A program made the translations under genes and the position numbers. A stretch of DNA of 47,591 nt, filler included, from Jimgerdemannia flammicorona (lineage: Eukaryota), in assembly GCA_003990765.1 (NCBI GenBank). It is 2 parts of 2 records of this genome, joined end to end, with 100 filler letters (N's around TTAATTAATTAA, not from the genome) between each part and the next. Parts side by side here need not be neighbours in the genome. Positions count along the whole stretch, not along the records: positions 1 to 23,750 come from RBNJ01001070.1; 1 more part is not named here. The stretch is one strand, 5' to 3'. Positions within the stretch are counted from its first letter, which is position 1. Every line of letters begins with the position of its first letter. Positions 2,671-38,720 of the stretch are shown piece after piece. The notes under the pieces were generated by a model. It saw only the letters and a list, made by a program, of their open reading frames with translations, ran no database searches and was not told the DNA's origin.

Positions 2671-2924
2671 ACTAGTAGAAGGTAGATTGTCTTCTTATAG
2701 ATAATTGGTAGGATTGAGCTAATAGTCTTTAACCACTATTCATCTTAAGAGTATGCAGCTATAGATATAATAGATAAACTTTCCCAATCTAAGTAGTATA
2801 GCATAGAACTATCTGATCATTTCTACTATCAGTACTCTGGTCAAGAGGGTGTTCTCTGATAGAAAGGAACTTATTTTCTCTAAGAGATATATACTCAATA
2901 TTGAGGCAATCTAGACTTATATAT

Positions 2925-6150: not shown

Positions 6151-6441
6151 TTGTCAGAGATTATGTCATCAATAGTAATATCATCAAAGACTACCCAGAC
6201 AGCATCTAAATCTATAAATAGCTTAGCAGTTATAGTATAGTTAGATTAGCCTTATATGATATGACTGTAAACTGACTCAGCAGTCAGATAATCTCTTGAT
6301 ATGTCAGATCACACTTATACCATTCTGACTCAGTAAGGCACTAAGTGCTACATCTATATTCAGAATAGTTCAGATAGCCTCTCACTAGTATAAATACCCT
6401 CTCTCCCAGACCTCAGAATCTCAGACTTGAACAATCCAAAC

Positions 6442-6980
6442 TAGTGCTCCAAATGAGTCAATTTGGATGAGATTCAGATGGATTCAAATCAACCATTGTT
6501 TTGATTTCCAAATTAGACAATTAAATATTTACATCAATAACTCAATGAATAATCATCCAAATTTGATGATCTTGATGTCGTTTGAAAGCCCTTAATAAGG
6601 CCTTTCTAATGATACTAAGAATATTAAAATCGGATTACACATTACCTAGATATTAAGGAAAATGTTCTATTTGATGAAATTTCCAAAATCAGCAAATTGA
6701 AGAATTTCCAAAATTGGTAATTCAGATGTTTTCCTTCATAACTCAGCAATGCATGATCCGATTTCAATGTTCTTGATATCATTTGATAGGCCTTATTAAG
6801 GGCTTTCAAATGACACCAAGATCATCAAATTTGGATGATTATTAATTGAGTTATTGATGTAAACATTTAATTGTCTAATTTGGAAATCAAAACAATGATT
6901 GATTTGAATCTATCTGGATGGGATTCAATCCAAATCAATCCAAATCCAATCTGGATTAAATTGACTTATTAGGAGCACTA
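6442..6980. mobile_element. Non-autonomous hAT MITE, fold-back
   Basis: TIRs TAGTGCTCCAAATGAGTCAATTT / AAATTGACTTATTAGGAGCACTA. 8-bp TSD ATCCAAAC/ATCCAAAT. About 200-bp internal inverted arms. Absent from the paralogous site at ~2225. Confidence 0.9.
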
Positions 6981-7215
6981 ATCCAAATACAACTTCTGAG
7001 TACTTCTCCACAATATCCCTTTACATAACTACTCCTAGTATAGTAATATCATAAATAGCAAATAAATTTATTTAATAATCCACAAACTTCTTTTAAGTAA
7101 ATCTGCTCCCCATTAGGTCCCACTCCTAACCCAGTCATGAAATTTCCTAATTGGCAGTACCATTCAGGTTACACAACCTTTGGAAGGCACTTACAATAGA
7201 AAAGAGACTAACAAT

Positions 7216-9238
7216 ATGGTGACTGACAGGCAATCTGAGGTGCATACTGAGCAGGGTGGCCTAAGTACTTTTGAATGGCAGCAGATGGAGAGGGGCCCGG
7301 GCCTGGGGGGGAGCATGAGGGAGCTGCTGGCAGGAGGATGCAGAAGAGATAGAGGTATTGGTGACAGACAAGGGTCTGGGAGAGTGAGCTTTGTAGAGAT
7401 GGTGAAGGGGAGGCAGCAGGTATCAGGGCTGGAGGGCTGGCTGAGGAGGGCAAGGAGACTAAGAAGGTAGTGGCACATGGGGGAGTAGCCCTTGGAAAGG
7501 AGGGCAGTAGAGCTGGGGGAGTAGTAGCTGGGGGGAGTGTGACTGCTAATAATGACAGGACTGCTAATCTGGAAAAAAATCCAGATGTAACAGCTGTTGG
7601 CAAGGCTGAGTGGCTGAGGCTTGGAAGACAAGGAGATTTGGCAGATGGTATGATGGGCCTGGTGGTGGCCCCATTACTCAAAAAATTGATCTTGGCATTC
7701 GTGATTACACTGTACTTCTGGGGCTTAGTGGTAATAGTGAAAATGATGCTGGGGCTTATCACTAAGCAGGTGGCAGAAGCTACATCAGTGAAGTTTTTGA
7801 AGGGACTGGAGGGTGTGGAGGTGGGTTTTGAGGAGGCTGAGCTGCTGGAGGAGGTATTGAAGATTGGGTTGGTGATTGGAGAGGTGTGTGTTCCGATGGC
7901 GAGGTATCTGAAATGGGATCCAAGAGTGGTCCAACTGCTGGTGAAAGAAGTACCCATGGTAATGGTAATAGAGATGAGAAAGAGAGTTGAGGATGTTATG
8001 GCAGAGTATGGAGAGGTAGTGGATATCAGATTCAGGGTCTGGAAAGAGACCTTGCTCAGGACTGGAGATGTGGATGTGAGGATTCAGCTAGCTGAGAAAG
8101 AGGCTACTGGGAAGGCAAGAAACTGGCCTTCAGTGATGGTCTGAGGAGCAATCTTGTGCAAGGTGATGAGGGTGAAAGGAAGTGAAGAGGAGGAAGAGGA
8201 TTTATTGGAAGCACTGGAAGAATTGGATGGTGCTGTGGAGTGGTGAGCAAAGGCTTGAAAGGCTTTCATAGAGTCAATGCACCTGGAGGTGGTGGATGGA
8301 AAGAGGATTCAAGTGGACAAGGTGTAGTGGGAAAGGGCTCAGGGGCATAAGAGACAGAAGGATCTGCTGGCTAAACTGGGGAGAAGACCACAGGAGGATG
8401 TGAGCAAGATAATAGGTATGGAAGAGGCCAAAACGAGTATCTGGGCTGACGAGAGAAGTGGGAATGCCAGAAAGGAGACAGGGAAGGTGAAGGAGGTGAA
8501 GATTATTGACCCATATGCTGATGGCACCTTGGAGGTTTGGATGAGGTCTGGGAGGATTCCCCCACTCCTTCTCCTCTTATCAGACGAGGCCCAGCTTCCA
8601 GAAACAAGATGGTGGAGGACGTGACAATGCTGGGGACCCATCAGGTGAAATTCAGCATTCTAGAGGTGATGAATGAGGGACATGTGGTGGTGGCCAGAGA
8701 GGAGGAACTGGTGGATATCCCGGAGGTGTGGGATGAGGCTGTGAGTACTGGAGCTGACACCACAATGTTGGATAGAGAGAGACTGGTGACCCCTAGAGGG
8801 AAGGAGGTGGGAAACCTACTTTGGATGTACAGGATGATGAATAACCTGGCAGCAGAGGAGTTGGGGGAGGTGGACTTGTGAGTGATGGGTGATGAGCACT
8901 AGGCATAGATTTTGCAGGGGGATGGAGTGATGATGGCACTGAAGGTAGAAATTCTCACAGTATATCTGGAGGAGAAAGGATATGAGGTAGATAAGGAGTG
9001 GGAGGCGGAGATAGTGGTTGTCACTGGGGAGAGGGCTGAGTACTATTGGAATAAGCATCATAGATTGCAGCTTTGGCAGGAGGCTTGCATTGGGTACTGG
9101 GAGGAGTTTGAGAAGAAGGCAGATAAGGAGATGAATGAGCTGTTGGCTGGTTTAGAGGCTCAGAGGGCTGAAGAGGAAGAGGTGATGGCAGAACATAATC
9201 TGGACACAACACAGGAGGAGATGAGTATAGAGCAGTAG
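7216..9238 (+). pseudogene. LINE ORF1, copy 1
   Basis: Fragmented homolog of 19301-21331 with stops and frameshifts. Confidence 0.85.
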
Positions 9239-9268
9239 AGATCGACTGATAACAAATTATATTTCTTT

Positions 9269-12200
9269 ATGAACAGTACAACTAACATTTTTTCTTTGAA
9301 TGTGAATGGGCTATGGGGTGCTGTTAGACATAGGAACATTTTTATTTGGCTGAAGGGATTGGAGGCTGATCTCTTTCTCTTGCAGGATTTCTGGTATGAG
9401 GATGACTCTGATAGAATGGACAAAAGAATGGGGTGGCATAGTGATTTGAAATGGCAAGGTCAGGATTCTGGTTCAGAAAGGCAGAGGGGAGATAAGAGAT
9501 GTGAGGAGCTGGGGGGAGAGGCTGGTCTGGGGTGAATGGATTTATGCAGGCTGGGAGCCAGTTACAGTTGACTCCTATTACTGCCCTACTATAAGGGGGG
9601 AGCATGTAGATTGGGTGAAGGGTCTCCAGGAGAGTGGGATCCTGGCAGAGGCTGGAGTGGATATGCTTGGGGGAGATTTCAATATGGTTCAGAATATACA
9701 GATGGATAGAACTGATAGAGGATGGGGTGCTGAGAGCAGGAGTGGGGGGCTGGTGGTATGGGAGGAAGTTGAAAGACTAGGAGCACTAGTAGATGCTGGT
9801 AGAGAGTACTGGGGGGATAGGAGGATATTTATGCATTAGGCTGGAGGCCTGGGGATAAGAATCAACTGGATTCTGATAGCCAACTGTTGGGGCCAAGATG
9901 TTTAAAAGTTGCTAGAGGTGGATTGGTGTCCATAGTTGGATCACTGGGGCCTTTTGGGACAGGGGTGCTTTGGGGGAAGTGGGGATGGGTCTGGACATTG
10001 ATACCTAAATTCCTCCTTGTTAGATGATGAGTTCCGGTGGGAGGAGTGGGCTAAAGACATTCAGCTGAGGGTGGAGAACTGGTGGCAGGAAGGTGCCTCA
10101 ATTGGGGTTCGGTAGATGAGAATGAAAGAGATGGCCAGGATGTCCTAGAGTGAGGCTGACAAGGTGGCAGGGAAGCAGTGATGGCAGAGAGTGCACTGGG
10201 CTTCTACTAGATTGGCTAGGCTTCTGGAGGAGTGGGTGAGACTGGTGATGGTGGAGGGAGAAGAAGATTAGAGAGTAATGAGGGTGAAGATGGAGGTTGG
10301 GGAACTACAACAGGTGCTGTGGGAAGAGGAAGAGGCAAGGGTGCATAGCTTGGTGGCATGGCTTCATTGGCAGGGGCTGGAGAAAGAGGAGAGGCCTTCC
10401 CAGTCTCTCACAAAGACCCTTAGGGTGAGAAGGGTACAGCAACAGTGGGAAGGGGTACTTGACTCAGATGGTATACTAGTACATGGTGTACAGGATATTC
10501 TTGGATTACTGAAGGAGCGATGGAGTAAATTGTGGAGTGAGGAGGGAGGGTGGGGCAGATGCTACTGCCATTGACCAAATATTAGAGGATTGACACTCAC
10601 GACAAGTTGTGGAACTAGGTGACCTGGTGATGCCTGTAAAGGAGGATGAGATCCACCAGATTCTTGCCACGACAGCCTCAGGTACAGCACCTGGAGAGGA
10701 TGACCTACCCTGGGACTTCTGGAAGTGAATGGTTGGAGTCCCAGGTGTGATGGGAGAGTTGATGGCATTGTGTGACTCTATACTGCAGACAGAGAGATGG
10801 GTGGGGGAGCAGGATCTTGGGCTGGTGATGCTGCTTTATAAGAACAAAGGAAGGTGAGAGGATTGGAAAAACTGGCAGCCAATAATGTTGCTAGATATGG
10901 ACAGAAAGTTGGTGACTAAGGTGGTGGTCATGAGGCTACAGAAGGTAGTCCAGCAAGTTGTAGGGGTTGAGCAGCAGGAATTTGTAGGTGGTTGGCTCAT
11001 TAGAGATAGCACAGCCTGGGTACATGGAGTTATTGAAGAGGCTAGAGCCTGTGGACTGGTTGGGCATCTAGTCTTCTTAGACCAGGAGAAGGCTTATGAC
11101 TGGGTGTGACAAGTCTGGCTGGCAAAAGTATTGAATAAAATGGGAGTTCCAATCTAATTTCGGTCAGCAATGATCAGCCTACTGGAAGGGAGTAGGGCTG
11201 CACTCTTGTGTAATGGGCATAGAGGGGTAGTATTCTCTCTGGGTAGGGGGGTGCCCCAGGGGGACCCACTGTCCCCCATCTTGTATACTCTTTCCCTAGA
11301 ACCTCTAATGGACAGAACTAGGCAGAGGATAGTGGGGCTCTCCATCTATAGCATTGGGTGGAAAGTTGGGGCCTTTGCAGATGACATGGTGGTTGGTTTG
11401 GGATCAATTGCTGATGTTGAGGAGCTTAAGAAGATAGTGGAGTAGTATAAGGAGAACTCTGGGGTGAAGCTGAATTGGTACAAGTGTGAAACAATAGTGC
11501 TAGGCAATGGCCTGGTGAGAGGTGAAGTTATAGGAATAATTGTCCCTACTGGTGAGGCAGTGTGGTACTTGGGCATCTATTTGTTAGTCTATGGGTCAGT
11601 TCTGCCCAGGCTTTGGTGAGAGCAGCAAATTGGAATTTGGGAGGAGGACTTGCGGGGTTGAGGGAAGACACTTTTCTCTGGTGGGACGGGTCTTGATTTT
11701 GAATGTATATTGGCTGCCGAAGCTGTGGTATTTGGCTTATCATCTGGACTTCCCAGCCTAGGTGGTGAAGAGATTGGTGAAGGTGGCCAAGGGATGGATT
11801 TGGACTGGCAGATGGAGCCAGATTGGTTGGGAGACCTTATCCCTACCAGTGGCAAGAGGTGGTCTTGGGCTGGTGGACTTTCTCAAATGACTACACTACT
11901 TGAGGGCATGGTGGTTTAAGAGGGTGGTGGAGTTGCAAGGAGGGAGTTAGGTTCCCCTGCTGCAGAAGGTCTGAGAGAGGCAGTCATTACCAAGAGACTC
12001 AACTGGTGATCTTCTCTCATTGGTTGAACTTCAGAATACTGCACAATTGCAATATAGAGATTTCTGGTGGGGGATAGTGGAGGGGGCATACCGCATTGGT
12101 ATTTGCTGGCAGGGGAATGAGGGGGAGGAGGCTTGAGACCCAGTGATATAGAGATGGGATGACATACTGCTGGGCAGCATGCCTTTACTTAAGTTCGATG

Positions 12201-12919
12201 TTGGTGATGGAATAGAATGCCAAAGGGGACCAGGCCAGGATCTGTGGCCTAGCAGTTGGCAAGGAGTGGGAATTGGAGAAGAGTGGGACTGGTATGGTGT
12301 TTGGATCTGGAGTGCCACAGTATGGAAATGAATGCCACCAAAGTACTGGGTGGTCTGGTAGTGCATGCTGAGGAGGAATGTGATGCTCAACTTCTGCTCA
12401 GGGCACCTTATCATAGATGGTTGCTTTGACTGTAAGGAGTGCTACAATGTAGAGCAGGAAGGGGACTTTGTACAGATGCCAGAACATTGGCTAGGAGAGT
12501 GCGAGGTATTGGGAGACTTTTGGTGGGTCATTGAAGACCACTTGGGGGTAAGGCATAGGAGAGATGAAGTACAGGGGAGGTGGGAGAACTTGAGGGATCG
12601 ATTGGTAGGAGGGGTAGAAAAGGAGTAGATTACCTTAGGTTGGGTATTGGCTATTTGGATTGGGATGGCTGGTCACTGGCTATTTGTTTTTGAGGATGAG
12701 AGGTGACAGAGCTTGGGGAGCTGGTTGTTGTGGTGGCAGAGACTTATGGAAGACACCTTGACAGATTGGTGGCTTGATTGGGGGCTGTAGGGGGGTCAGA
12801 GGCACCACTTGGTGGAGAAAATCTGTAGACAGAGTGGTGGAAGAGTTGGAGTTATTGGTGAGAGGGTGATCTTTATTTGTGAAGGGGTGGAGAGGGGCTC
12901 CCCTATGGGGATCAGATAG
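9269..12919 (+). pseudogene. LINE ORF2 (APE endonuclease, reverse transcriptase, C-terminal Cys/His finger), copy 1
   Basis: Motifs SLNVNGL, LLQD, GGDFN, DQEKAYD, GVPQGDPLSP, FADD and CxxC…EHWLGEC; many premature stops. Confidence 0.92.
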
Positions 12920-13681
12920 TAGGTAGTGATATTGTATACTTATTCATAGACTGGTAATAAAGACGGAGTCCAAGTGACTATAAAAAAAAAAAAAATGAAA
13001 TTTCCTAATTGGGTATTGTCTGCAGTGATATGTCAATTCAATTAAGCTGGTCTTAGTTTCTTGAACTTCCTGAAATACAGAAAATCCTGAATATCTAAAA
13101 CTAGTCTAAAAAAGGACTTTAGTTGAGACATCAACTCAATTTTGAAATCAATAAGTGTAGAGAATATACTCTATATGAAATTGATCTTAATCTTAAGAAA
13201 ACAGTCTTCCAGAATATCCAGAACTTCCAGAAAACCCTTTCAGAACTACATAATGATTATCTTAACAAGTAACTCTCTTACAACTTAGTAGTAGTAGTTT
13301 ATAATCCAATTCTGCTTCAAGATGCTTTCTCATCTCATTACAAACACCTCTAAAAATTCTTATAAGTTGGTATAAAGCCCAACCTCTGAACTGAAATTTA
13401 TCCCAAACTATCTGACAATCTGGAGAGAATTGAACCTAATATATAAGGACAATTTGACCTCTACATTAGGACAAACTTCATTCAAAGAAAGAAGTACTCC
13501 AATTAAACTAGCAGATAGACAAAACTCTATTTACTGAACTCCTTACTCTATACCCCACAAGTCAAGATGAAGAAGGTCTTATAGAAGCCTTCTTTATTCT
13601 TCTCAACAAGAGTTTTGTCAGCTCCACAAATCTGAGTGACCTAGGATAACTAGCAGCAGTCTTTCTAGCCTTAGTTCCTTA

Positions 13682-14790
13682 TAGTGCTCCAAATGAATGG
13701 AGTTGATCCAGATGAGATTCGATTCAGATTCATCATGTGATGAATTTGAATTAACTCAGATTGGTCTTGTAATCTGATCCAGATGGATCAATCCAGATAG
13801 ATCAATCTGGATCAATCCAGATGGATTGAAATCTTTGGTGATATCATTCTTTCTTTTGTTCATTTTGCTCTTGTTTTTTTTTTTCCTGCCACACTTTGGT
13901 GACATCACCCTTTCCTTTGTTCTCTCTCTTTTTTTTGTTCTTTTTCTTTATTCTTTCCTGCCACATTATGAGCAAACAAAACAGCAGCCCTTAATTTGTA
14001 CATTGGTCCAGTCTACTCATTTTTCACTCTGCAATGATTGTTAAAAGAGAAGTATTCAAGGTGGAAATGCACTCTCTGCTGATAATATTAGATTCTTTCT
14101 CATATAGGCAGTATACAAGCTGTTCATCGAGAGCCAAAGGGGTGACAGCAGTGGTGATGGCAATGGTAATGGTGATAGCAATGGTGATGGTGATGGCAGG
14201 GATGAGGGTGAATTCTAGTAACAACTCACAGCAGCCCTTTGGACCTTGGAATTCACAGATCTCACAGCTATATATGTGGCAGCCTTTTTGGAGCAGCCAG
14301 TAGTAGATATAGATTGCTCTTTTCTGCCACTAATTTTTACTTGTTTAAATTCCCCCAGCATGACCTGATTCATCTCATGCTCTTCTTAGGGTCTACAGCT
14401 CTATGGTAAGATCTGCCAACTTTATTTGCAACATCTGGTCAAGATGAAGAAAGATTGGAGAACATTGCAGAGTATACCTTTGGTGGCTGAGCTATTAAGT
14501 CAATGCATTGCATAGCAGAGGTCTCAAAAGGAATAGAAGCAAGCCTTCATGAGCAATCTTATGCAACTTATATAACTTGTCGATATGTAACTCATCAACA
14601 TACAGCTCACTCACTCACTCACTCATGCTCTTTTTCTGAAATACCCATCTCTGTATTTTATTTAATTTCATTTTTTATGTGGTCTCCTCCTAAAAAACAC
14701 CTACACCCACATATAACTCACCTGCATGCAACTTACCCACACACAACCCATCCACACACAATCTGTCCACATGCAACCCATCCACATACT
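13682..14790 (+). mobile_element. hAT element left end with partial cargo gene, truncated
   Basis: Starts TAGTGCTCCAAAT with ATCCAGAT subterminal repeats. Colinear with 14791-~16000 and ends exactly where the next copy starts. Confidence 0.75.
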
Positions 14791-14879
14791 TAGTGCTCCA
14801 AACAGATGGAGTTGATCCAGATGAGATTTAATTCAGATTCATTATGTGGTAGATTCAAATCAACTCAGATTGGTCTCAT

Positions 14880-15023
14880 GATCTGATCCAGATTGATCTA
14901 GATTGATCCAGATTGATCCATCCAGATTGATCCATCCAGATTGATCTAGATTGGTCCATCCGGATTGGTCCATCTGGATTGGTCCATCCAGATTGGTCCA
15001 TCCAGATTGATCCATCCAGATTG
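14880..15023. repeat. Subterminal tandem array of (A)TCCAGATTG(G/A), 10/14-bp units
   Basis: Directly visible. A shorter related array is at ~13775-13828. Confidence 0.85.
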
Positions 15024-15252
15024 AAATCTTTGGTGACATCACCCTTTCTTTTGTTCATTTTGCTCTTGTTTTTTTTTTCTTACCATACTTTGGTGACATC
15101 ACCCTTTCCTTTTGCTCCCTCTCTTCTTTTGTTCTTTTCTTTGTTCTTTTTCTTTGTTCTTTTTCTTTGTTCTTTCCTGCCACATCACAAGCAAATAAAA
15201 CAGCAGCCCTTAATTCATACATTGGTCCAGTCTACTCATTTTTTACCCTACA

Positions 15253-17343
15253 ATGATCATCAAAAGAGGGAGTATTCAAGGTGGAAATGCACTCTCTGCT
15301 AATAATGTTAGATTATTTCTCATATGGACAGCACACAAGCTGCTCATTGAGAGCTAAAGGAGTGATGGCAGTGGTGGTGGTGATGGTGATGGTGATGGTG
15401 GGGATGAGGGAGAATTCTGGCAACAACTCATGATGGTCCTTCAGACCTCAGAATTCACAGACCTCACAGCTATATATGCAGCAGCCTTTTTGGAGCAGCT
15501 GATAGTAGATGTAGGTTGCTCACTCAGCCACCACTTGTTTACTTGTGTTTATTTAAACTTCACCAGCATGACTTAATTCACCTCATACTTTTCTTAGGAT
15601 CCACAACTCTATGGCAAGATCTGCTAACTTTATTCACAACATCTGGTCAAGATGAAGAAAGGCTGGCAGATGTTGCAGGGCATGCCTTTGGTGGCTGAGC
15701 TGTTGAGTCAATATATTGTATGGTGGAGGTCTCAAAAGGAACAGAAACAAGCCTTTATGAGCAATCTTGTGCAACTCATGCAACTTATCAGCATGCAACT
15801 CATCAGTATGCAACTCATCGGCATGTAGCTCACTCACTCACTCACTTATGCTCTTTTTCTGAAATACTCATCTCCATGTTTTATTTAATTTCATTTTTAC
15901 ATGGTCTCCCCCTAAAAAACACCTACAGCCGCACACAACCCACCCACACACAACCCACCTGTATACAACCTGCCCACATGCAACCTGCCTGCACACAACC
16001 CATCCACATGCAACCTGCCCACAACCTGCCTGCATGCAACCCACCTGCACACAACTTGCCTGCATGCAACCCATCTGCACACAACCCATCTGCATACTTA
16101 TTTTGGTCTCTCAGATCAGGGCTCAGTTCCATTGGAAAGGAGAGTTCAAAGTTACCTGAGTTCAACTACATCCAGCATCTGATCAAATAGAGAAATTTGA
16201 GGGCAAGATGTTCAGCATGAGCAGTACTAGCATCATCATCAAGGCTTGGGGGTCTACATTCGAATCAGAGCCAATCATACTCGACCAAGGGGTCCATTGG
16301 CCAGCAGGAGTAACCAATGATGAAAGAACTATATCTTTATTAATGAATGTGGAGAGGTGGTTGTGATGGTGGTAAGGAACCTCTATGGCAATGAGCTTCA
16401 CTGCCACATCAATGAGATTTGTGAGGATTGCATCAAATACTAGGTGGCAGGAAAGAGGGGGTGAAAAAAGCAAGGAGGGGGGGTTTGGATGAGAATTGAG
16501 TATACTGCAACACTGGTGAAGAGTGGGTTCTGGAGTTCCAAAATCCCCCACACTCATCTCCCTTTTTTTTTAACCCCTCTCCAGATAAATCACACTCTTC
16601 ACCAATATACTCTTTTTGATACAATTCCAGGGATGCACAAGATTCTGTACCCCTACCAGAACTTTAGAAGTACCATCAAAGAGCAAACTGCACGTGAGTA
16701 TGACGTGGCCTGTGCAGTGATAGCAGCTATGATCTGGGGTTCTTTGAGCAGATTGGTAGAGCGTACGGCAGGCCAGCTTGGTAGTGATCTTGGTGCAGCT
16801 GTACATATATTTTTGGCACAATTTAGTGTGCCATATGAGGTGAGGAGCTCCACTTTTTCAGAGTGCTACAGCCTGGGGGGTTTCTGCCCCCCTACATGCA
16901 AAAAGGACTGACTAGTTGCCATCTGTTTTGGCAGGTTTCCAAGCCAGAGCTCCCAGGACTGGACCAAGAGCAGGCATCCACCAGTACAACCTGGCAGTAT
17001 GAGGTCCTGGGCCAAGGGTTCACCCAACTGTATGCTCACATCATATCAGGATACATCAGGCACAACCTTTCTCTGCCCACACACACAGACAACAATGTCA
17101 TCCCGATAATGTTTTACATCCGGAAAGGAAGGACCCAACCTGGGAGAATGCAGTAGAGTCTGGTATAACCTCACCTACAGTTTCGGGGTCCCATTTGTGG
17201 CCAATATAGCTGTTCTATTCCAACCACATAACCACCATGGCACCATCACCTTTGAGGAGAGCTTGGACACAACAGTTGTCACACTCACAATAGATAATAG
17301 GCTCATCAAGGCCTGGGACCGGTGGGTGGAGCAGTTTTTGTGA
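15253..17343 (+). pseudogene. Multi-exon TET/JBP-like 2OG-Fe(II) dioxygenase (degenerate)
   Basis: ATG at 15253; GT-AG intron 15511-15597; acceptors at 16114 and 16584. C-terminal SGYIRHNLSLPTHTDNN (HxD at 17082-17090) and, after a frameshift, VWYNLTYSFGVPFVANIAVLFQPHNHHGTIT…RLIKAWDRWVEQFL* (HGT at 17236-17244). The family call rests on motif recognition only. Confidence 0.6.
15925..16095. repeat. Intronic ~15-bp minisatellite (CACACAACCCA/TGCCTG-like)
   Basis: Visible tandem units; related tract at ~14700-14790. Absent from the minus-strand gene copy. Confidence 0.8.
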
Positions 17344-17644
17344 GGGTTAGGCAATCTTTTGCAAGAGTTAGGCAGCCATTTTGTGTGGGTTAGGCAGCTA
17401 TTTTGTGTAGATTGGGCAAGTCTTATGTGGGCTGATTGCCTCTTATGTAGTACTAGCTTAGCTATTATGCAGGGCCCTACTAGCCCCTTGGCCCTGCTCT
17501 GTAGTACCACCAGTACAATACTGTGGCATAGGGCTGGGGTGCCCATGGGACCCAAACTGGTAACTTCAACTGCCAGAAACATCCTCCAACTGCCAGAAGC
17601 ACCCTCTGACTGCCAGAAGTACCCTCCACCCTGGACTCCTTGGT

Positions 17645-18110
17645 GGCTTGGAGCTGCTCCTATGCTGCTAGCAGAGGGCCACAAATTTTGTGTGCTTCCT
17701 CCGCCTGCCCCATCTGTCCTGGATACTTGCGGCTTGGGGCTACCCCTTGCTGCTGGCAGAGGGCTGCAAATTTTGCATGCTCCCTCTGCTGACTCTATGC
17801 CTGCCAACCCACCAACTGATCCTGCCCACTGATCCAGGCACTGACAGCTTGGGGCTGCCCCTCACTGCTGGTGGAGGGCTGCAAATTTTGCATGCTCCCT
17901 CTGCTTACCCCCTTGACCCAGACACTTGCAGCTTGGGGCTGCCCCTTGCTACCAGTGGAGGGCCACAAATTTTGCATGCTCCCTCCACTGACCCACCAAC
18001 CTGGCCACCAACCTGCCCACCAACCTGCCCACCGACCCAGGTACTGGCAGCTTGGGACTGCCCCTTGCTGCTGGCTGAGGGCTGCAAATATTGCGCACTC
18101 CCTCTGCTGC
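17645..18110. repeat. About five copies of a ~62-bp GC-rich hairpin-containing repeat
   Basis: Consensus GCTTGGGGCTGCCCCTTGCTGCTGGCAGAGGGCTGCAAATTTTGCATGCTCCCTCTGCT at ~17645, ~17730, ~17846, ~17930 and ~18049. Confidence 0.85.
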
Positions 18111-18258
18111 TGCTGCCAACCCCACCCCACTTGGGCCACAAACTCTGGGCCAAGTCCTCAGGTTTTTTTTTCCTTTTTTATTATTTTGAAAGGTATTAAT
18201 TTGAAAGATATTAAATATTCCACAAGGCCAACCAACTTATCCATGGAGCTGCTGAATT

Positions 18259-19160
18259 TTAGCAGCCCAAGCCCCACCAAGACTTCAGACACATATATGC
18301 TCAGATTGTCTCAGCATTCAGCGCATACCTCTTTGGAGCAATGAGGTCCACCCTATCTGAGAACACCTGCTTGACAGGAGTACTGGAGGCAGGAATTGCC
18401 AAGTAGTCCCAAGCCATACCATACAGGCTGGGGAAGTCTATTTGATGCAGCTGCACACCCCAATGGGTAGAGTGGTGGTTAGATTGGTAGGTTAAATTAA
18501 CCCAATGCCCACCTGACAATGCCCACCTGACAACCTACCTTCCACCAGTTGAGCACCTCTGCACCCTCCAGCAGGACCATGCAGTCACTGGCAAGGTAAA
18601 TGGTAAGTTTGTCTATTGACGGCAGCTCTTCCACTAATGGCTCCCTCTTCCTCTTTCTGCTGAAGTAAATGTGAGATAGGAGGGAATCCTCAGTATATTC
18701 GTCTGGACTTCAGCTGGAACCTTGCAGTGGTGTGTAGTTTTTCCAGTATACTTCAATTACGGCCTGCTTGGTTCTCTCAATGAAGTGCTGCTCCCAGCTC
18801 TGATCTTTATGGTATTGTAGCTTTAAGCATAGGTCCAGCACTGTTCAAAGAAAAGGAGAGTGAGTTTTTGCAGAGTTTCCTCTATTTTGGAAGGGGTAAT
18901 GGCCACATGCCAACATCAACATACCTGTACTGATTGAGTATACAGCGGTATCTGTTTGGAAGTAGTATTTCCTGAGCTTGCTTAGAGCAACCTCCATGAC
19001 ATCTCTCTGATCTGGGCTTAACTATAAATCACTGCAATCCTCCAGCCTGTCCTTGAGCTTGTCCTCTAGCTGGTCAATCAGAAGATTGTATACTGGTATC
19101 ACAGAGCTTATTGTCAAGGTTGTTTGTTTGACTATATTCTTTGTACAATCATCAAAACAC
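18259..19160 (-). pseudogene. hAT transposase, C-terminal part including dimerization domain
   Basis: Spliced product …TISSVIPVYNLLIDQLED…STVLD(LC)LKLQY…LNWWK|LHQIDFPSLYGMAWDYLAIPASSTPVKQVFS…MCLKSWW. GT-AG introns at 18924-18841 and 18538-18451. Confidence 0.9.
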
Positions 19161-19300
19161 TGGCAGTTATATGTAGTAAGATATTGCATTGTGCAGAGGC
19201 AGACAAAATGAGCATGAACATCTTTCTCCGATAACATTCAGGTTACACAACCCTTTGGCAACACTTTTGATACAGTTTTTGGAGAAAAGCTACTAGTATC

Positions 19301-21331
19301 ATGGCGACCAACAAGCATCCAGAGGTGCATACTGGACAGGGTGGCCCTGGAGCATTTGAATGGCAGCAAGTGGGGAGAGGCCCTGGCCTGGGGGAAAGTA
19401 GGAGGGGCCTGCTGGTGGGGGGCCGTGGTGGAAGAGGGGGCGGAGCTGGAAGTCAAGGGTCTGGCAGAGTGAGCTTTGTGGAGAAGGTAAAGGGGGGTCA
19501 GCAGGGAGCAGGACTGGAGAGCTGGCTGAGAGGGGGGAAGGTACCGGTGATAGCTTCCAGGCAGCAACCTCTTGGGGGTGCCTCTCTGGAGGGCCATAGG
19601 AGTGGAGCTGGGGGGGTAGCGGCTGGGGCAGGGACTGCTGATGGGGGTGTGATGGGTGATCTGAAAAAAAATCTAGATGAGACTGCTGATGGTGAGCCGA
19701 ACTGTGGGAAGGACATGAGGCCCAGGGACCTGGTGGATGGTGTAACGGGACTGGTGGTGGCCCCGTTACTCAAGAAGTCGATCTCGGCATTCGCAGTCAT
19801 GCTGTGCTTCCGGGGCTTAGCAGTGATGGCAAAAATGGTATTAGGGCTTATCGCTAAGCAGGTGGCGGGAGCAGCTTCGGTGAAGTTTCTGAAGGGACTG
19901 AAGGGGGTGGAGGTGGGATTTGAGGAGGTAGAACCACTGGAGGAGGCGCTGAAGGTTGGGTTAGTGGTTGGGGAGGTATACGTTCCAATGGCAAGGTGTT
20001 TGAAATGGGATCCGAGGGTGGTCCAACTGCTGGTGAAAGGAGTACCCACAGTGATGGCAATGGAGACAAGGAAGAGAGTGGAGGATGTCATGGCAGAGTA
20101 TGGAGAGGTGGTGGATATCAGATTCAGGGTCTGGGAAGAGACCATGCTCAGGACTGGGGATGTGGATGTGAGGATTCAGCTGGCTGGGAAAGAGGCTACC
20201 GGGAAAATGAGGGACTGGCCTTCAGTATTGGTCTGGGGGGCTTTCCTGTGCAAGGTGACGCAGGTGAAAGGAAGTGAAGAAGAGGAGGAAGATTTATTGG
20301 AAGTGCTGGAGGAGCTGGATGGGGCTGTGGAACGGCAAGCTAAGGCCTGGAAGACTTTCGAGAAGTCGACGCTCCTGGAGGTGGTGGATGGAAAGAGGAT
20401 TCAAGTGGACAAGGTGTAGTGGGAAAGGGCTCAGGGGCGGAAGAGGCAGAAGGATTTGCTGGCTAAGCTGGGGGGTGGACAACAGAAGAATGCGAGCATG
20501 AATATGGATACAGAAGGGGCCAGTGCGAGTGTCTGGGCTGGTGAGAGGAGTGGGAACGAAGGAGCAGGGTCAGGGAAGGTGAAGGAGGTGAAGATTAGAG
20601 ACCTATATGCTGATGGCACCTTGGAGATTTGGGATGATGGCTGGGAGAACTCCCCCACCCCTTCCCCTCTAATCAGGTGGGGCCCGGCTTCCAGGAACAA
20701 GCCTGGGGAGGACGTGATGATGCTGGGAACCCAGCAGGTGAAATTCAGCATTCCGGAGGTGTTGGATGGGGACCAAGTAGTGGTGGCAGGGGAGGAGGAA
20801 CTGGTGGATGTCCTGGAGGTGTGGGATGAGGACGTGAGTATGGGAGCGGACACCACGATACTGGATGGAGGGAGGCTGGCGACCCCTGGTGGAAAGGAGG
20901 TGGGGAACCTACTTTGGATATACCAGATGATGAATAACCTGGCAGCAGAAGAGCTGGGGGAGGTGGACTTGCGTGGGATGGGTGATGAGCACTGGACAAG
21001 AATCTTGTAGGGGGAAGGAGTGGCGATGGCGCTGAAGGTGGAAATTCTCGTGGTGTATCTGGAGGAGGAAGGGTATGAGGTGGATAAGGAGAGGGAGGCG
21101 GAGTTGGCGGTGGTTGCTGGGGAGAAGGCTGAGTACTGTTGGAACAGGCATCATGGGTTGCAGCTTTGGCAGGAGGCTTGCATCGAGTACCAAGAGGAGT
21201 TTGAGGAGAAGGCTGATGAGGAGATGAATGAGCTATTGGCTGGACTGGAGGCTCAGAGGGCTGAAGAGGAGGAGGTGATGGCTGAACATAATCTGGACAC
21301 AGCACAGGAGAAGCGGGGCATAGAGCAGTAG
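19301..21331 (+). pseudogene. LINE ORF1, copy 2 (~676 codons, two in-frame TAG stops)
   Basis: Track ORFs 19301..20419, 20456..21010 and 21020..21331 share one frame. Confidence 0.88.
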
Positions 21332-21361
21332 AGATTGATTGAGAACCAACCATATTTTATT

Positions 21362-23750
21362 ATGAACAGTACAACCAATATTTTTTCTTTGAACGTGAAT
21401 GGGCTAAGGGGCACAGTTAGACACAGGAACATTTTTCTTTGGTTGAAGGGATTGGAGGCCGATCTCTTCCTCTTGCAGGATGTCAGGTGTGAGGATGACG
21501 CTGATAGGATGGAATGGACTAAGGAATGGGGTGGTATGGTGATTTGGAATAGCAAGGTTGGGATTCTGGTTCAGAAAGGCAGAGGGGAGATAAAGGATGT
21601 GAGGAGCTGGGGGGAGAGACTGGTCTGGGGTGAGTGGATTCGAGCAGGTTGGGAGCCAGTCACAGTTGGCTCCTGTTACTACCCTGCGGTGTAGGGGGAG
21701 CATGTGGATTGGGTGAAAGGGCTCCTGGAGAGTGGGATCCTTGCTGAAGCTGGGTTGGATATGCTTGGAGGAGATTTCAATATGGTTCGAGATGTCCGGT
21801 TAGATAGAACTGATGGAGGACAGAGTGTGGAGAGCAGGAGTGGGGGGTTAGCAATGTGGGAGGAGGTTGAAAGGCTAGGAGCACTGGTGGATGCTGGTAG
21901 GGAGCACTGGGGGGATAGGAGAGTATATACGCATTGGGCTGGAGGTCTGGGGACAAGGATTGACTGGATTCTGATGGCCGACTGTTGGAGCCATGATGTC
22001 TGGAAGGTGATAGAGGTAGAATGATATCTGTGGTCAGATCACTGAGGCCTCTTGGGACAGGGGTGTTTTGGGGGAAGTGGAGATGGGCCTGGACATTGGC
22101 ACCTGAATTCCTCCTTGTTGGATGATGAGGTCCGGTGGGAGGAGTGGGCGAAAGACATTCAGCTGAAGGTGGCGAATTGGCGGCAGAAAGGGGCCGCGAT
22201 TGGGGTTCAGTGGATGAGGATGAAAGAGATGGCCAGGATGTATTGGAGCGAGGTTGGCAGAGTGGCTGGGAAGCAGCGAAGGCAGAAAGTGCATTGGGCT
22301 TCTACTAGATTGGCTAGGCTCCTGGAGGAGTGGGCGAGACTGGCTGCAGTGGAGGGAGAAGAGGATTGAAGAATAACGAGGGTGAGGATGGAGGTTGGGG
22401 AACTGCAACAGGTGCTACGGGAAGAGGAAGAGTCAAGGGTGCAAGGCCTGGTGGCATGGCTTCGTTGGCAGGGGGTGGAGGAAGGGGAAAGGCCTTCCAA
22501 GTATCTCACAAGGACACTTTGAGCAAGAAGGGTACAGCAGCGGTGGGAAGGGGTACTTGACTCAGATGATGTACTAGTGCATGGTGTACAGGACATCCTT
22601 GGAACGCTGAAGGCACGATGGAGTGGATTGTAGAGTGAGGAGGAGGGTGGGGCAGATGCTACAGCCATTGATCAAACATTAGAAGATTGGTACCCACCAC
22701 GAGCTGAGGGACTAGGTGACCTAGTGATGCCTGTAAAGGAGGATGAGATCCACCAGGTTCTTGTCACGACAGCCTCGAGCACGGCGCCTGGGGAGGATGG
22801 CCTCCCCTGGGATTTCTGGAAGCGAATGGTTGGAGTCCTGGGCATATTGGGGGAGTTGACAGCACTGTGTGACTCTATATTGCAGTCAGGGAGATGGGTG
22901 GGGGAGCAAGACCTTGGGCTGGTGATGCTGCTTTATAAGAACAAGGGAAGGCGAGAGGATTGGAAGAACTGGCGGCTGATAATATTGCTAGATATGGATA
23001 GGAAGTTGGTGACTAAGTTGGTAGTCACAAGGCTACAGAAGGTGGCCCAGCAAATTGTGGGTGTTGAACAGAGGGGCTTCATAGGGGGTCGGCTCATTAG
23101 AGATGGCATGGCCTGGGTACATGGAGTTATTGAAGGTGCTTGAACCTGTGGACTGGATGGGCGTCTTGTCTTCTTGGATCAGGAGAAGGCTTATGACCGG
23201 ATGCAGCAAGTCTGGCTGGCGAAAGTATTAGATAGAATTGGAGTTCTGGCCCCATTTCGGTCGGTGATAGTCAGCCTACTGGAAAGGAGTAGGGCTGCGC
23301 TCATGTGCAATGGGCATCGAGGGGTGGCTTTCCCTCTGGGTAAGGGAGTGCCCCAGGGGGACCCACTGTCCCCCGTTTTGTATGCTCTTTCCTTGGAACC
23401 TCTCATGGACAGGATTCAGTGGAGGATCATGGGGCTCTCTATCTATGGAGTTGGCTGGAAGGTTGGAGCCTTTGCGGATGATATGGTGGTTGGTTTGGGA
23501 GTGACTGCGGATGTTGAGGAGCTCCAGAAGACAGTGGAGTGGTATGAGGCGAACTCTGGGGCAAAGCTGAATTGGCACAAGTACGAAACAATGGTGCTGG
23601 GCAATGGCTTGGTGGGCAGAGAAGTTATTGGAACAATTGTCCCCACCAGAGAGGCAGTGCGGTACTTGGGCATCTATTTGTCGGTCTATGGGTCTGTTTT
23701 GCCCAGGCTGTGGTGGGAGCAGAGGATTGGAATTTGGGAGGAGGACCTGC
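21362..23750 (+). pseudogene. LINE ORF2, copy 2 (APE and RT, truncated by gap)
   Basis: MNSTTNIFSLNVNGLRG, GGDFN, SDH, APGEDG, GVPQGDPLSP, FADD, RYLG. Confidence 0.92.
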
Positions 23751-23850: not shown

Positions 23851-23861
23851 AAAAAGAGAAA

Positions 23862-26800
23862 GTGAAGGGGAGACAGCAGGTGTTAGGGCTGGAGGACTGG
23901 CTGAGGAAGAGCAAGGAGACTGAGAAGGCAGCAGTGCATGGGGGAGTAGCCCTTAGAAGAGGGAGCAGTGGAGCTGAGGGAGTAGTGGCTAGGGAGAGTG
24001 TGACTGCTGATGGCAATGGAACTGCCAATCTGAAAAAAAATCCAGATATAACAGCTGATAGTGAGGCTGAGTGGTTGAGGCTTAGAAGACAAGGAGATTT
24101 GGTGGATGGCATGATGGGCCTAGTGGTGGCTCCATTACTCAAAAAATCAATCTTGGTATTTATGATTATACTGTACTTCTGGAGCTTAGTGGTGATGGTG
24201 AAAATGGTGCTGGGGCTTATAGCTAAGCAGGTAGTAGGAGCTGCATCAGTGAAGTTTTTGAAGGGACTGAAGGGTGTGGAGGTGGGTTTTGAGGAAGCTG
24301 AGCTACTGGAGGAGGCACTGAAGATTGAGTTGGTAGTTGGGGAGGTGTGTATTCTGATAGCACAGTGTCTGAAATGGGATCTGAGGGTGGTCCAACTGCT
24401 GGTGAAAGGACTGCCCATGGTGACAGTGGGGGAGATGAGAAAGAGAGTGGAGGAAGTCATGGCAGAATATGGAGAGGTGGTGGATATTAGATTCAGGGTC
24501 TGGGAAGGAACCTTGCTCAGAACTAGTGACATGGATGTGAGGATTCAGCTGGTGGGGAAAGAAGCTACTGGGAAGATGAGGGACTGATCTTTGGTAATGG
24601 TCTGGGGAGTATTTCTGTGCAAGGTGACAAGGGTGAAGAGAAGTGAGGAGGAGGAAGAGGATTTATTGGAGGTGCTCAAAGAATTGAGTGGTGCTGTGGA
24701 GTAGTGAGCAGAGGCTTAAAAGGCCTTTGTAGAGTCAATGCACTTGGAGGTGGTGGATAGAAAGCAGATCCGAGTGGACAAGGTGCAGTGGGAAAGGGCT
24801 CAGGAGCATAAGAGACAGAAGGATCTGCTAGCTAAACTGGAAGGTAGACCACTGGAGGATGCAAGCAAGATGATGGGCATGGAGGGGGCCAAAGCGAGTG
24901 CCTGGGCTAGCAAGAGGGGTGGGAATGCCAGAAAGAAGACTGGGAAGGAGAAGGAGGTAAAGGTTAATGACCTGTATGCTGATGATATCTTTAAGGTTTG
25001 GGAAGAGGCCTGGGAGGACTCCCCCATCCTTTCTCTTCTTATCAGGCAAGGCCCAGCTTCCAGAAATAAGATAGTGGAGGACATGATAATTCTGAGGGCC
25101 CAACAGGTGAAATTCGGAGTTCCAGAGGTGACCAATGGGGGACATGGGGTGGCAGCCAGAGAGGAGGAACTGGTGGATGTCTCAGAGGTATAGGATGAGG
25201 CTGCGAGTACTGGAGCTGACACTACAATGCTGGATGGAGAGAGGCCAGTGACCCCTGGAGGGAAGGAGGTGAGGAACCTACTTTGGATATGCAGGATGAT
25301 GAATAACCTGGTGGCAGAAGAGTTGGGGGAGGTGGACTTGTGAATAATGGGTGATGAGCACTGGGTATGGATATTATAGTGGGATGGAGTGATGATGGCA
25401 CTGAAGACAGAAATTCTTATGGTGTATCTGGAGGAGGAGGGGTATGAAGTGGACAAGAAGCAGGAGGCAGAGATGGCAGTTGTCACTAGGGAGAGGGTTG
25501 AATACTACTGGAACAAGTGTTATGAATTACAGCTTTGGCAGGAGGCTTGTATTGAGTACCAGGAGGAGTTTGAGGAGAAGGCAGATGGGGAGATGAATGA
25601 GCTGCTGGCTGGATTGGAGGCTCAGAGGGCTGAAGAGGAGAAGGTGATGGCAGAACATAATCTGGACATAGCATAGAAGGAGATGAATATGGAGTAGTAG
25701 AGATTGACTAATAACAAAATATATTCATTATGAATAGTACAACCAACATTTTTTCTTTGAATGTGAATGGATTACGGGGTGCTGTTAGATGGAGGAACAT
25801 TTTTACTTGGCTGAAGGGATTGGAGGCTGATCTCTTCCTATTGCAGGATGTCAGGTGTGAGGTTGACTCAGATAGGATGAAATGGACAAAGGAATGGGAA
25901 GACATGGTGATTTGGAAAGGCAAGGTCAGGATTCTGGTTCAGAAGAGCAGAGGGGAGATAAGAGATGTGGGGAGCTAGAGAGAGAGGCTGGTCTGGGGTG
26001 AGTGGATTTGTGCAGGCTGGGAGCCAGTTACAGTTGGCTTCTATTACTGCCCTGCTGTATGGGGTGAGCATGTAAATTGGGTGAAGGGTCTACAGGAGAG
26101 TGGAATCCTTACAGAGGCTGGGGTGGATATGCTTGGGGGAGATTTCAATATGGTTTGGGATATACTGATGGATAGCACAGATGGAGGACAGGGTGCTGAG
26201 AGCAGGAGCAGGGGACTGGTAATGTGGGAGGAAGTAGAAAGACTTAGTGCACTAGTAGATACAGGTAGGGAGTACTGGGGAGATAGGAGGGTTTATACGC
26301 ATTGGGCTGGGGGCCTGGGGACTAAGATTGACTGGATTCTGACAGCCAGCTGCTGGGGCCAAGATGTTTGGATGTTGCTGGAGGTAGAATGGTACCCATG
26401 GTCAGATCACTGGGGCCTTTTGGGACAGGGGTGCTTTGGGGGAAGTGGAGATGGGCCTAGACATTGGCACCTAAATTCCTCTTTGTTAGATGACAAGTCC
26501 TGGTGGAATAAGTGGGCTAAAGACATTCAGCTGAGGGTGGAGAACTGGCAACAGGAAGGTGCCTCAATTGGGGTTTGGTGGATGAAGATGAAAGAGATGG
26601 CCAGGATTTACTGGAGTGAGGCTGGCAGGGAGGTGGGGAAGTAGAGAAGGCGAAGAGTGCAGTGGGCTTCTACTAGATTGACTAGGCTTCTGGAGGAGTG
26701 GGCAAGACTGGCAATATTAGAAGAAGAAGAAGATTGGAGAGTATTGAGGGTAAAGATGGAGGTTGGGGAACTACAATAAGTGCTGCGGGAAGAGGAAGAG

Positions 26801-29445
26801 GTAAGGGTGCAAAGCTTGGTGATATGGCTTCATTGGCAGGTGCTGGAGGAAAGAGAGAGGCCTTCCAAGTTTCTCATGAGGGCCCTTAGGGCAAGAAGAG
26901 TATAGCAATGATGGGAAGGGGTACTCGACTTGGATGGTGTGCTAGTGCATGGGGTGCAGGACATTCTTGGATTATTGAAGAAATGCTGGAGCAGATTGTG
27001 GAGTAAGGAGGAGGGTGGGGCAGATGCTGCTACCATTGACTGAATATTGGAGGATTGGCACCCACCACAGATAGAGGGGCTAGATGACCTGGTGATGTCT
27101 GTAAAGGAGAATGAGATCCACCAGGTTCTTACTGCAATAACCCCAGGTATGGTACCTGGAGAGGATGGTCTGCCCTGGGACTTCTGGAAGCAAATGGTTG
27201 GAGTTCTAGGTGTGATGAGAGAGATGATGGCATTGTATGACTTTATATTACAGACAGAGAGATGGGTGGGGGAGCAGGATCTTGGACTGGTGATGCTGCT
27301 TTATAAGAACAAAGGAAGATGAGAGGATTGGAAGAACTGGAGGCTGATAATGTTGCTAGATATAGACAGAAAGTTGGTGACTAAGGTGGTAGTTGCAAGA
27401 CTACAGAAGGTGGCCCAGCAAGTCATGGGTGTTGAGCAGAGGGGATTTGTAGGTGGTTAGCTCATTAGAGATGGTACAGCCTGGGTATATGGAGTTATTG
27501 AAGGGGCAAGAGCCTGTGGACTAGATGGGCATCTAGTCTTCTTGGACCAGGAGAAGGCTTACAACCAGATGCAATGAGTCTGGCTGGCAAAGGTATTGGA
27601 TAGAACAGGGGTTCTATATCAATTTCAGTCAGCAATGGTCAGCCTACTGGAAGGGAGTAGGGCTGCACCCATGTGTAATGGACATAGAGGGGTAGCATTC
27701 CCCCTGGGTAGGAGGGTGCTCCAGGGGGACCCACTGTCCCCCATTTTGTATGCCCTTTCTCTGAAACCCCTAATGGACAAAATTAGGTGGAGGATAGCAG
27801 GGCTCTCTATCTATGAAATTGGGTGGAAAGTTGGGGCCTTTGTGGATAACATAGTGGTTGGGTTGGGATCAATTGTGGATGTTGAGGAGCTCAAGAAGAC
27901 AGTGGAGTGGTATGAGGAGAACTCTGGGACTAAGCTGAATTGATACAAGTGTAAAACAATGGTACTAGGCAATAGCCTAATGAGGGGAGAAGTTATAGAA
28001 ACAATTGTCCCCACCAGTGAGGCAGTGTGGTACTTGGGCATCTATTTGTCAGTCTATGGGTTAGTTCTGCCCAGGCTTTGGTGGGAGTAGAGGATTGTAA
28101 TCTGGGAGAAGGACCTATGGGGTTGGAGGGGAAGACACTTTTCTCTGGCAGGGCGGGTCTCAATTTTGAATGTATATTGGCTGCCGAAGCTGTGGTATTT
28201 GGCTTATCATCTGGACTTCCCAGTCTGGGTGGTGAAGAGATTGATGAAGGTGGTAAAGGGATGGATTTGGGCTAGCAGATAGAGTCAGATTGATTGAGAG
28301 ACCTTGTCCCTACCAGTGACAAGAGGTGGTCTTGGGCTGGTGGACTTTCCCCAATGACTACACTGCTTGAGGGCATGGTGGCTAAAGAGGGTGATGGAGT
28401 TGCAAGGGAGTGATTGGATTCCCCTGCTGCAGAAGATCTGGGAGAGGCAGATATTGCTGAGAGGCTCAACTGGTAATCTCTTCTCATTGGTTGGACTTCA
28501 GAACACTGAACAATTGTGATATAAAGAATTCTGGTGGGGGATAGTGGAGGGGGTGCACTGCATTGGTATTCGCTGACAGGAGAATGAGGGGGAGGTGGCT
28601 TGGGACCTGGTGATGTAGAGATGAGATAGTATACTGCTGGGTGGCATTCCTTTAATTGAGTTTAATATTGGTGATAGAGTGGAATACCAAAGGGGACTGG
28701 ACCAGGATCTGTAGCCTAGCAGTTGGCAAGGAGTTGGAATTGGAGAAGAGTGGAACTAGTAGAGTGTTTGGACCTGGAGTGCTGCAGTATATAAGTGGAT
28801 GCCACCGAAGTACTGGGTGGTCTGGTGGCACATGCTGAGGAGGAATGTAATGTTCAACTTCTGCTCAGGGCACCTTATCATAGGGGGTTACTTCGACTGT
28901 GAGGAGTGCCATAATGTAGAGCAGGAAGGGGACTTTGTACAGATGCCAGAATATTGGCTAGAAGAGTGCGAGATGTTGGGGGACTTTTGGTGGGCTATCG
29001 GAGACCACCTGGGGGTGAGATGTAGCAGAGGTGAAGTATGAGGGAGGTGAGAGGACTTGAGGGATCAATTGGTAGAGGGAGTAGGAAAGGAATGGCTTAT
29101 CTTAGGCTGGGCATTAGCTATTTGGATGGGGCTGGCCAGTTACTGGCTCTTTGTTTTTGAGGATGGGAGGAGACAGAGCTTGAAGAGCCAGTTGTTATGG
29201 TGGCAGAGTTTTATGGAAGACACCTTGACAGGCTGGTGGCTTGGTTGGGGGCTGCAGAGTGGTCAGAGGTACTGCTTAGTGAAAAAAATCTATAGACAGA
29301 GTGGTGGGAGAGTTGGAGTCATTGGTGAGAGGATGGTCTTTATTCATAAGGAGGTGGGGAGGGGCTCTCCTATGGGGATTGGGTAGTAGGTGGTAATATT
29401 GTATACTTATTTATGGACTGGTAATAAAGATAGAGTCCAAGTGAC

Positions 29446-29481
<36 letters not shown>
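23862..29481 (+). mobile_element. LINE copy 3 (5'-truncated, degenerate; ORF1 to ~25700, ORF2 25730-29386)
   Basis: Colinear with copy 1; ends GGTAATAAAGATAGAGTCCAAGTGACTAT plus poly(A) 29449-29481. Confidence 0.92.
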
Positions 29482-29483
<2 letters not shown>

Positions 29484-31269: not shown

Positions 31270-31290
31270 ATAAGTAAATATTTTGAACAA

Positions 31291-38720
<7,430 letters not shown>

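Follow-up and report, generated by a model that had tools for sequence, protein, structure and literature searches.

A decayed hAT-superfamily transposon with a putative TET/JBP-like dioxygenase gene in Jimgerdemannia flammicorona

The hAT element and its copies

The DNA analysed here, called the window throughout, is a stretch of 47,591 nucleotides (filler included) from Jimgerdemannia flammicorona (GenBank assembly GCA_003990765.1). Between positions 14791 and 19237 it holds a hAT-type 5′ terminus, a spliced gene on the plus strand and, convergent with that gene, the end of a hAT transposase. On balance, we take this locus to be probably the left part of a dead hAT-superfamily DNA transposon, with a passenger gene that would encode a very divergent Fe(II)/2-oxoglutarate (2OG) dioxygenase of the TET/JBP branch. 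The parts of the main copy, and the related features elsewhere in the window, are as follows.

14791-14802 (+), hAT-type 5′ end of the main copy, the exact 12-mer TAGTGCTCCAAA
14866-15024 (+), subterminal tandem repeats with the unit ATCCAGATTGATCC
15931-16097 (+), tandem repeats of 15, 30 and 45 bp (CACACAACCCACCT...) just 5′ of the gene, about 55 bp long in copy 3
16208-16420 (+), exon 1, with the ATG at 16208 and one base missing after 16324
16421-16630 (+), intron 1 (GTGAGG...CCAG), phase 1, GT at 16421 and AG to 16630
16631-16839 (+), exon 2, an open frame, matched by copy 3 at 41.7% over 60 amino acids
16840-16934 (+), intron 2 (GTGAGG...GGCAG), phase 0
16935-17343 (+), exon 3, the putative dioxygenase core, with HTD at 17082-17090, the distal His at 17236-17238, a conserved Arg at 17299-17301 and the stop codon at 17341-17343
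17336-18214 (no strand), spacer of non-coding tandem repeats between gene and transposase, absent from copy 3, no Pfam family in its open reading frames (ORFs)
18301-19237 (-), C-terminal third of a hAT transposase, convergent with the gene, with in-frame stops and two apparent introns, cut at about 19232
13682-14790 (+), partial 5′ copy of the element (terminal inverted repeat TAGTGCTCCAAA and subterminal region), halting where the second terminal repeat starts
2774-4400 (-), copy 3, AT-rich and heavily decayed, with the 5′ region at 4400-3847, the gene at 3791-2924 and the C-terminal end of the transposase at 2774-2914 (+)
6442-6980, 4476-5031 and 40091-40451, three hAT-type miniature inverted-repeat transposable elements (MITEs) of 361-559 bp
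29518-31274 (+), N-terminal two thirds of another hAT transposase, AT-rich and decayed, wedged between two LINE-like insertions

A sequence-only reading of this locus had described a hAT-type terminal inverted repeat (TIR) at 14791 with subterminal repeats behind it, and both are present. Tandem Repeats Finder (TRF) resolved the repeats at 14906-15024 as 8.8 copies of a 14-bp period with 87% matches. The convergent hAT transposase of the same reading was borne out by a Pfam match to Dimer_Tnp_hAT (PF05699) at 18301-18534 (-), which scored 28.4 bits (cut-off 21.4; E = 1.4e-6). Since homology to a long interspersed nuclear element (LINE) begins at 19232, the transposase is cut there and the right TIR does not follow. 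A complete transposase, with BED finger and catalytic core, was not found in the main copy, which keeps about the last third only.

The terminal motif was examined at two lengths. The 9-mer TAGTGCTCC begins at 14791 and again at 13682 (+), and with up to one mismatch it is not enriched in the window (14 matches, 5 of them exact, against 11.8 expected; 29 of 100 shuffles reached 14). The 12-mer TAGTGCTCCAAA occurs exactly at 6442, 13682 and 14791. With up to two mismatches, seven of its ten matches in the window lie exactly at repeat boundaries: at both 5′ copies of the element, at both ends of the MITEs 4476-5031 and 6442-6980, and at the left end of the MITE 40091-40451. The three MITEs end in TAGTGCTC, in inverted pairs, and are flanked by 8-bp target site duplications (TSDs) that could be read directly as ATCCAAAC/ATCCAAAT, CCTACCAG/TCTATCAG and ATCATTCC/ATCACCCC. 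These pairs match at 7, 6 and 6 of 8 positions, respectively, and every mismatch is C/T. As the MITE at 6442-6980 is missing from the paralogous site 2226-2238, it is a true insertion carrying the TSD that is the hallmark of hAT elements.

Two head-to-tail copies of the element's first 1.1 kb stand in the window, 13682-14787 and 14791-16009 being 78-79% identical. This tandem arrangement may have come from a nested insertion or from rearrangement or aberrant transposition. The first of the two 5′ copies halts at the equivalent of about 16102, some 10 bp short of the part held in common with copy 3. In copy 3 the order of the parts and their convergent orientation are those of the main copy, while the flanks differ. 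Copy 3 lacks about 1.26 kb of the main copy, so that the transposase end stands directly after the gene, which itself stops at the equivalent of 17045 and has lost its catalytic half. The spacer of the main copy contains a 203-bp tandem repeat (2.3 copies, 76% matches, 17646-18108) that copy 3 does not have. Contigs from other samples also run on from the gene into the same upstream repeat. The order kept in copy 3 despite its other flanks, together with these contigs, indicates that the gene travels with the hAT parts.

LINE-like, long terminal repeat (LTR) and MITE insertions make the region heavily nested, the 5′ end of the element is duplicated and its right TIR is missing from the window, all of which would suit an accidental unit made up of different nested elements, the gene belonging to one and the hAT parts to another. 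We consider this very unlikely, because both junctions, that between the 5′ region and the gene and that between the gene side and the transposase end, are common to two copies in the same order and orientation with other flanks, and because the gene itself is not bounded by a TIR or a TSD. The view of 14791-19234 as an element held in part. The collinear copy 3 and the maintained frame support a hAT transposon that carries a passenger gene; the interval is not a whole element, as only a third of the transposase is there and the right TIR is missing. Several absences weigh against our interpretation of the locus as a hAT element: no right TIR was found within the window, enclosure by paired TIRs was thus not seen, and the element's own TSD and the N-terminus of its transposase are likewise missing from the window.

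Two candidates for missing parts were rejected. The other transposase fragment, at 29518-31274, matched zf-BED weakly (E = 0.0021; 18.5 bits, cut-off 20.6), and the typical core motifs can be recognised in it by eye. Its orientation is opposite to that of the main fragment, and the two overlap over about 80 codons with 43-48% identity (31032-31274), which makes it another copy and not the missing half. The motif TAGTGCTAC at 2136 was tried as the right end of copy 3, and was discarded because it sits in an LTR-like repeat in common with 6148-6433. A purine/pyrimidine-coded alignment for the lost 5′ terminus of copy 3, past the MITE 4476-5031, scored 75 and was not significant, shuffles averaging 60.7 and reaching up to 89. 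A 300-bp sequence, 81% identical between 2382-2681 and 12995-13294, lies beside copy 3 on the transposase side and beside the main locus on the 5′ TIR side. Each of two copies of one host repeat therefore holds a hAT element of this family; the two elements point in opposite directions and lie less than 400 bp from the same point.

Structure and decay of the passenger gene

The passenger gene occupies 16208-17343 on the plus strand and was read from the sequence as three exons separated by two GT-AG introns, with all junctions in phase; intact, it would comprise about 275-280 codons. These exons contain all the peptides that had been quoted for a spliced plus-strand gene, and the accompanying remark that its reconstruction needs frameshift corrections was also correct, three 1-bp corrections being required. 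The deletions in the window copy lie after 16324, at about 17120/17121 and within 17147-17158. At the first of these sites an extra G is present in five contigs of run X1 and in two X2 contigs, and copy 3 stays in frame there. At the second, an extra T after 17120 is present in family contigs. The third was deduced from the open frame of P0001, a metagenomic relative described below.

Family copies were collected as contigs of four sequencing runs (three of soil metagenomes and one of an organism) aligned to 16100-17400. In run X1, 359 contigs were aligned, of which 48 are at least 99% alike, 87 are 95-99%, 139 are 90-95% and 85 are below 90%. Where other family copies have G or C, the window mostly has A or T. 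Indel sites among the family copies were examined for the 12 of 16 that are listed. Ten of these 12 are intronic (two in intron 1 and eight in intron 2) and none of those listed falls in exon 2. The remaining two fall at the frame breaks, 16324 and 17120, where family copies have one base more than the window. The mostly intronic position of the listed indels gives good support to the exon model and to the view that the frame was under selection. The reading frame is kept open across many family copies. The window copy, by comparison, is a pseudogene, with three frameshifts and a truncated transposase, and is itself without functional consequence.

Affiliation of the predicted dioxygenase

A full HMMER scan of exon 3 against 1.84 billion representative proteins recovered two relatives only. 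In P0001 (136 amino acids, E = 2.9e-24, 75% identity) exon 3 is read through in a single open frame, and P0002 (134 amino acids, E = 7e-5) is 46% identical; each is a singleton ORF, the metagenome contigs measuring 823 and 1009 bp. All three sequences share SGY, PTHTDNN, FY, WY.L.Y.F.VP, LHGT, FEE and LT.D.RL..AWD, and each has the HxD...H metal triad of 2OG-Fe(II) dioxygenases. In the numbering of P0001 the conserved residues are H48, D50, H100 and R121, with a spacing of 52 from His to His. Further searches for homologous proteins, with the exon-3 ORF, the exon-2 ORF and a four-row family alignment (A2), gave no match. In metagenome contigs, a pattern derived from P0001 had 101 matches, none of them a relative, and a degenerate DNA pattern for PTHTDNN(5 codons)FY had none.

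The passenger gene could be a captured host fragment or a non-catalytic relic, carried by accidental transduplication and useless to the transposon, which we think quite improbable. Such an origin would agree with the pseudogene in the window, with the absence of the catalytic half from copy 3, with the finding of two relatives only among 1.84 billion representatives, and with a 2OG-binding Arg that is not evident at its canonical place. It fits poorly with the indels of the family, which avoid exons (ten of the 12 listed sites being intronic), and with the metal ligands, which are kept in a relative only 46% identical to the query exon. Taken together, these last two observations point to selection on the protein during the spread of the family.

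As to which dioxygenase branch is involved, three kinds of comparison suggest TET/JBP. The first used the ESM Atlas. A model of P0001 (predicted template-modelling score, pTM, 0.59) had structural neighbours in 2OG-Fe(II) families at TM scores of 0.54-0.63, a lead only towards the double-stranded beta-helix fold of that superfamily. Among language-model neighbours of P0001, the best named cluster was the Tet-like PF20515 (2OG-FeII_Oxy_6) at 0.91, with 6 of 30 matches, from Basidiomycota. For P0002 the best named set was PF12851 (Tet_JBP), also at 0.91, with 21 of 30 matches, followed by PF20515 at 0.88.

The second comparison was a tblastn search of P0002 against 50,697 phage records, which returned five records at E<=10. 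Three of the five carry one gene (Kozie twice, and MO526). The Kozie copy of this gene adjoins an amino-acid:DNA transferase (ADDT) gene and shares 48% identity with Cooper gp2; Pfam assigns it to Tet_JBP at E = 1.2e-5, a score below the cut-off. Such transferase genes beside phage TET/JBP genes presumably belong to a thymidine hypermodification pathway. The two remaining matches were dismissed as chance, one lying opposite an annotated coding sequence and the other in a hypothetical gene near tail-assembly chaperone genes.

Thirdly, hhalign was used to compare A2 with an alignment of seven phage proteins of the Cooper gp2 type (A3). The probability was 71%, with E = 3.7e-5 over 65 columns at 35% identity, and both metal ligands are in register, HxD falling on HRD and HG on HG. 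None of 100 column shuffles reached the score (maximum 23.5 against 38.2), and a reversed alignment scored 17.6.

A number of results count against the TET/JBP assignment. The Atlas scores are leads only, by the tool's own statement. The phage match had a database E of 4 and was then picked as the hhalign target, so that the E of 3.7e-5 is post hoc and the hhalign result is supportive but not decisive; its probability also lies below the usual bar of 90-95%. Exon 1b and exon 2, though collinear with the phage TET/JBP profile, matched it at E = 0.19 and 0.37 and were not significant. HMMER comparison with Pfam profiles, PF12851 (Tet_JBP) and PF20515 (2OG-FeII_Oxy_6) included, gave no match to the exons at E<=1 or to P0001 and P0002 at E<=10. 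No PHROGs family was found for P0001 or P0002, and no match to the PDB sequences of TET2, NgTET, CcTET and CMD1 (an enzyme that uses another co-substrate), in both cases at E<=10. AlphaFold2 on A2 produced an unusable model with a predicted local distance difference test (pLDDT) score of 31.6. In TET/JBP enzymes the 2OG-binding Arg stands at the start of the last strand, in a motif of R-x-S type. When the alignment was extended, at low confidence, the Arg that binds 2OG in the phage proteins (YRIS) came to stand on a D/T position that is not conserved, and the conserved Arg of our family comes 21 residues after the distal His against 14 in the phage family. An earlier caveat about the 2OG-binding Arg thus stands.

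Some of these results would also be expected if the gene encoded a 2OG-Fe(II) dioxygenase of another branch (prolyl-hydroxylase-like, AlkB-like or orphan), whose substrate need not be a DNA base. The structural neighbours in the Atlas are mostly PF13640 and PF13759, together with a basidiomycete cluster named 'prolyl 4-hydroxylase', the hidden Markov models (HMMs) of Tet_JBP and PF20515 found no match, and the canonical Arg position of TET is not conserved. However, both named sets of language-model neighbours are of TET type and hhalign sets both ligands in register with TET/JBP. In addition, the phage collection contains other annotated dioxygenases, yet the matches of the right kind within genes were to TET/JBP only. 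We regard another branch as unlikely, if with a real chance.

Overall, sequence comparison makes a weak to moderate case that the passenger gene is TET/JBP-like. Of the original proposal of such a gene, the HxD, His and Arg residues in all three sequences, the language-model neighbours and the 71% hhalign probability speak for it, and a match in Pfam (Tet_JBP or 2OG-FeII_Oxy_6), PHROGs or PDB did not materialise.

Surrounding DNA, proposed role and comparison with known transposons

Pfam searches of 94 ORFs outside the element, and self-comparison, showed the window to be repeat-dense eukaryotic DNA. The main features around the hAT copies are:

about 7155-12995, 19232-23750, 23855-29482 and about 31300-37255, LINE-like elements with RVT_1 and poly(A) tails
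41-47 kb (-), a Gypsy-type retrotransposon with protease, RNase H, integrase, chromodomain and dUTPase
218-2398 and 5605-7153, an LTR-like repeat

The LINE-like element at 7155-12995 is full-length, and its target duplication of 17-18 bp, (A)TGAAATTTCCTAATTGG, occupies 7137-7154 on one side and 12995-13012 on the other. In each of the four LINE-like copies the sense strand shows a strong positive GC skew (0.35-0.55), and the copy ending at about 37255 has an unusually long pure poly(A) of about 170 bp (37088-37255). Besides a chromodomain, the Gypsy-type pol at 41200-45600 (-) includes a dUTPase (PF00692, E = 1.6e-17). When three LINE copies were aligned, transitions made up 819 of the 1007 polarised substitutions, and C>T changes occurred at a per-site rate of 0.26-0.28 at CpG and of 0.03-0.14 elsewhere. 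The obvious C>T decay noted from the sequence was thereby confirmed, and its excess at CpG makes the decay pattern methylation-like.

If the TET/JBP reading is right, an intact protein of the family would use H-x-D and the distal His to bind Fe(II) and would oxidise a modified DNA base, most likely 5-methylcytosine. Oxidation could then relieve the element of methylation-based silencing, or of methylation-driven C>T mutation, by analogy with what has been proposed for published TET-carrying transposons.

A claim of novelty for TET-carrying hAT transposons does not hold, as they are already in print. In Kojima (2025; PMC12730594), TET/JBP genes are described on 11 DNA-transposon lineages, hAT included, in three fungal groups, and an anti-silencing role is inferred for the transposons that carry them. 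The present element is therefore not a new kind. We suggest that the family adds a member, new or at any rate unannotated, to a kind already known, and it may already be among the families listed there.

The closest published counterparts are hAT7 elements, of which 20 families with 7-bp TSDs are described from six Puccinia species (rust fungi); three of these families have the TET gene upstream of a transposase that is oriented the same way (PMC12730594). Like ours, the TET-carrying hAT7 elements are fungal hAT transposons with a TET/JBP-type gene beside the transposase, and the same role is proposed for them. Unlike them, MITEs with the terminus of our element have 8-bp TSDs, both of our copies have gene and transposase tail to tail, and the dioxygenase is set apart from the hAT7 TET by the extent of its divergence (PMC12730594). 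The TET/JBP genes of Kyakuja, Dileera and Zisupton in basidiomycetes, CcTET among them, are also multicopy cargo of fungal DNA transposons (PMC12730594), but their transposases belong to another superfamily, and the PDB sequence of CcTET was matched neither by our profile nor by the exon pieces (E<=10).

Other TET/JBP-like proteins offer partial parallels. Proteins of the PE type obtained HHpred E-values of 1.4 and 19 and were recognised only by structure, so that, as in our family, the relationship to TET is barely visible to sequence methods (PMC12730594). They have HxE where ours has HxD (HTD), and in the parts of the paper drawn on here they are not reported on hAT elements (PMC12730594). 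Cooper gp2 of a Mycobacterium phage, used as a TET/JBP reference (PMC12730594), represents the type to which Kozie gp1 belongs. This is the sole family with alignment-based similarity to ours, sharing TSG..(S)LP.H.D.N, GG, YGF.VP and L.HG with the same spacing. It differs in being a phage gene beside amino-acid:DNA transferase genes and in having YRIS 14 residues after the His, a motif that our family does not have. CMD1 of Chlamydomonas (named in PMC12730594), a TET homologue with altered chemistry, had no sequence match here and is a possible analogue should the canonical 2OG-binding Arg indeed be missing. A bolder proposal, which we hold to be a long shot, is that the gene represents a further type of transposon-borne TET/JBP-like enzyme beside the PU, AG and PE types, on a hAT lineage of a soil fungus with 8-bp TSDs. 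The later-placed Arg would then replace the canonical 2OG-binding Arg, so that the enzyme may handle its co-substrate in another way or, like CMD1, take a different one.

Transposon-borne enzymes that demethylate DNA are a counter-defence against methylation-based silencing by the host. If our reading is true, a hAT lineage and a very divergent dioxygenase would be added to the published list of TET-carrying transposons. It would also show that TET/JBP-like cargo of transposons can escape the HMMs of its own families. The present family, common in some soil samples (one run gave 359 contigs) and nearly absent from protein databases, would be an unannotated reservoir of this kind.

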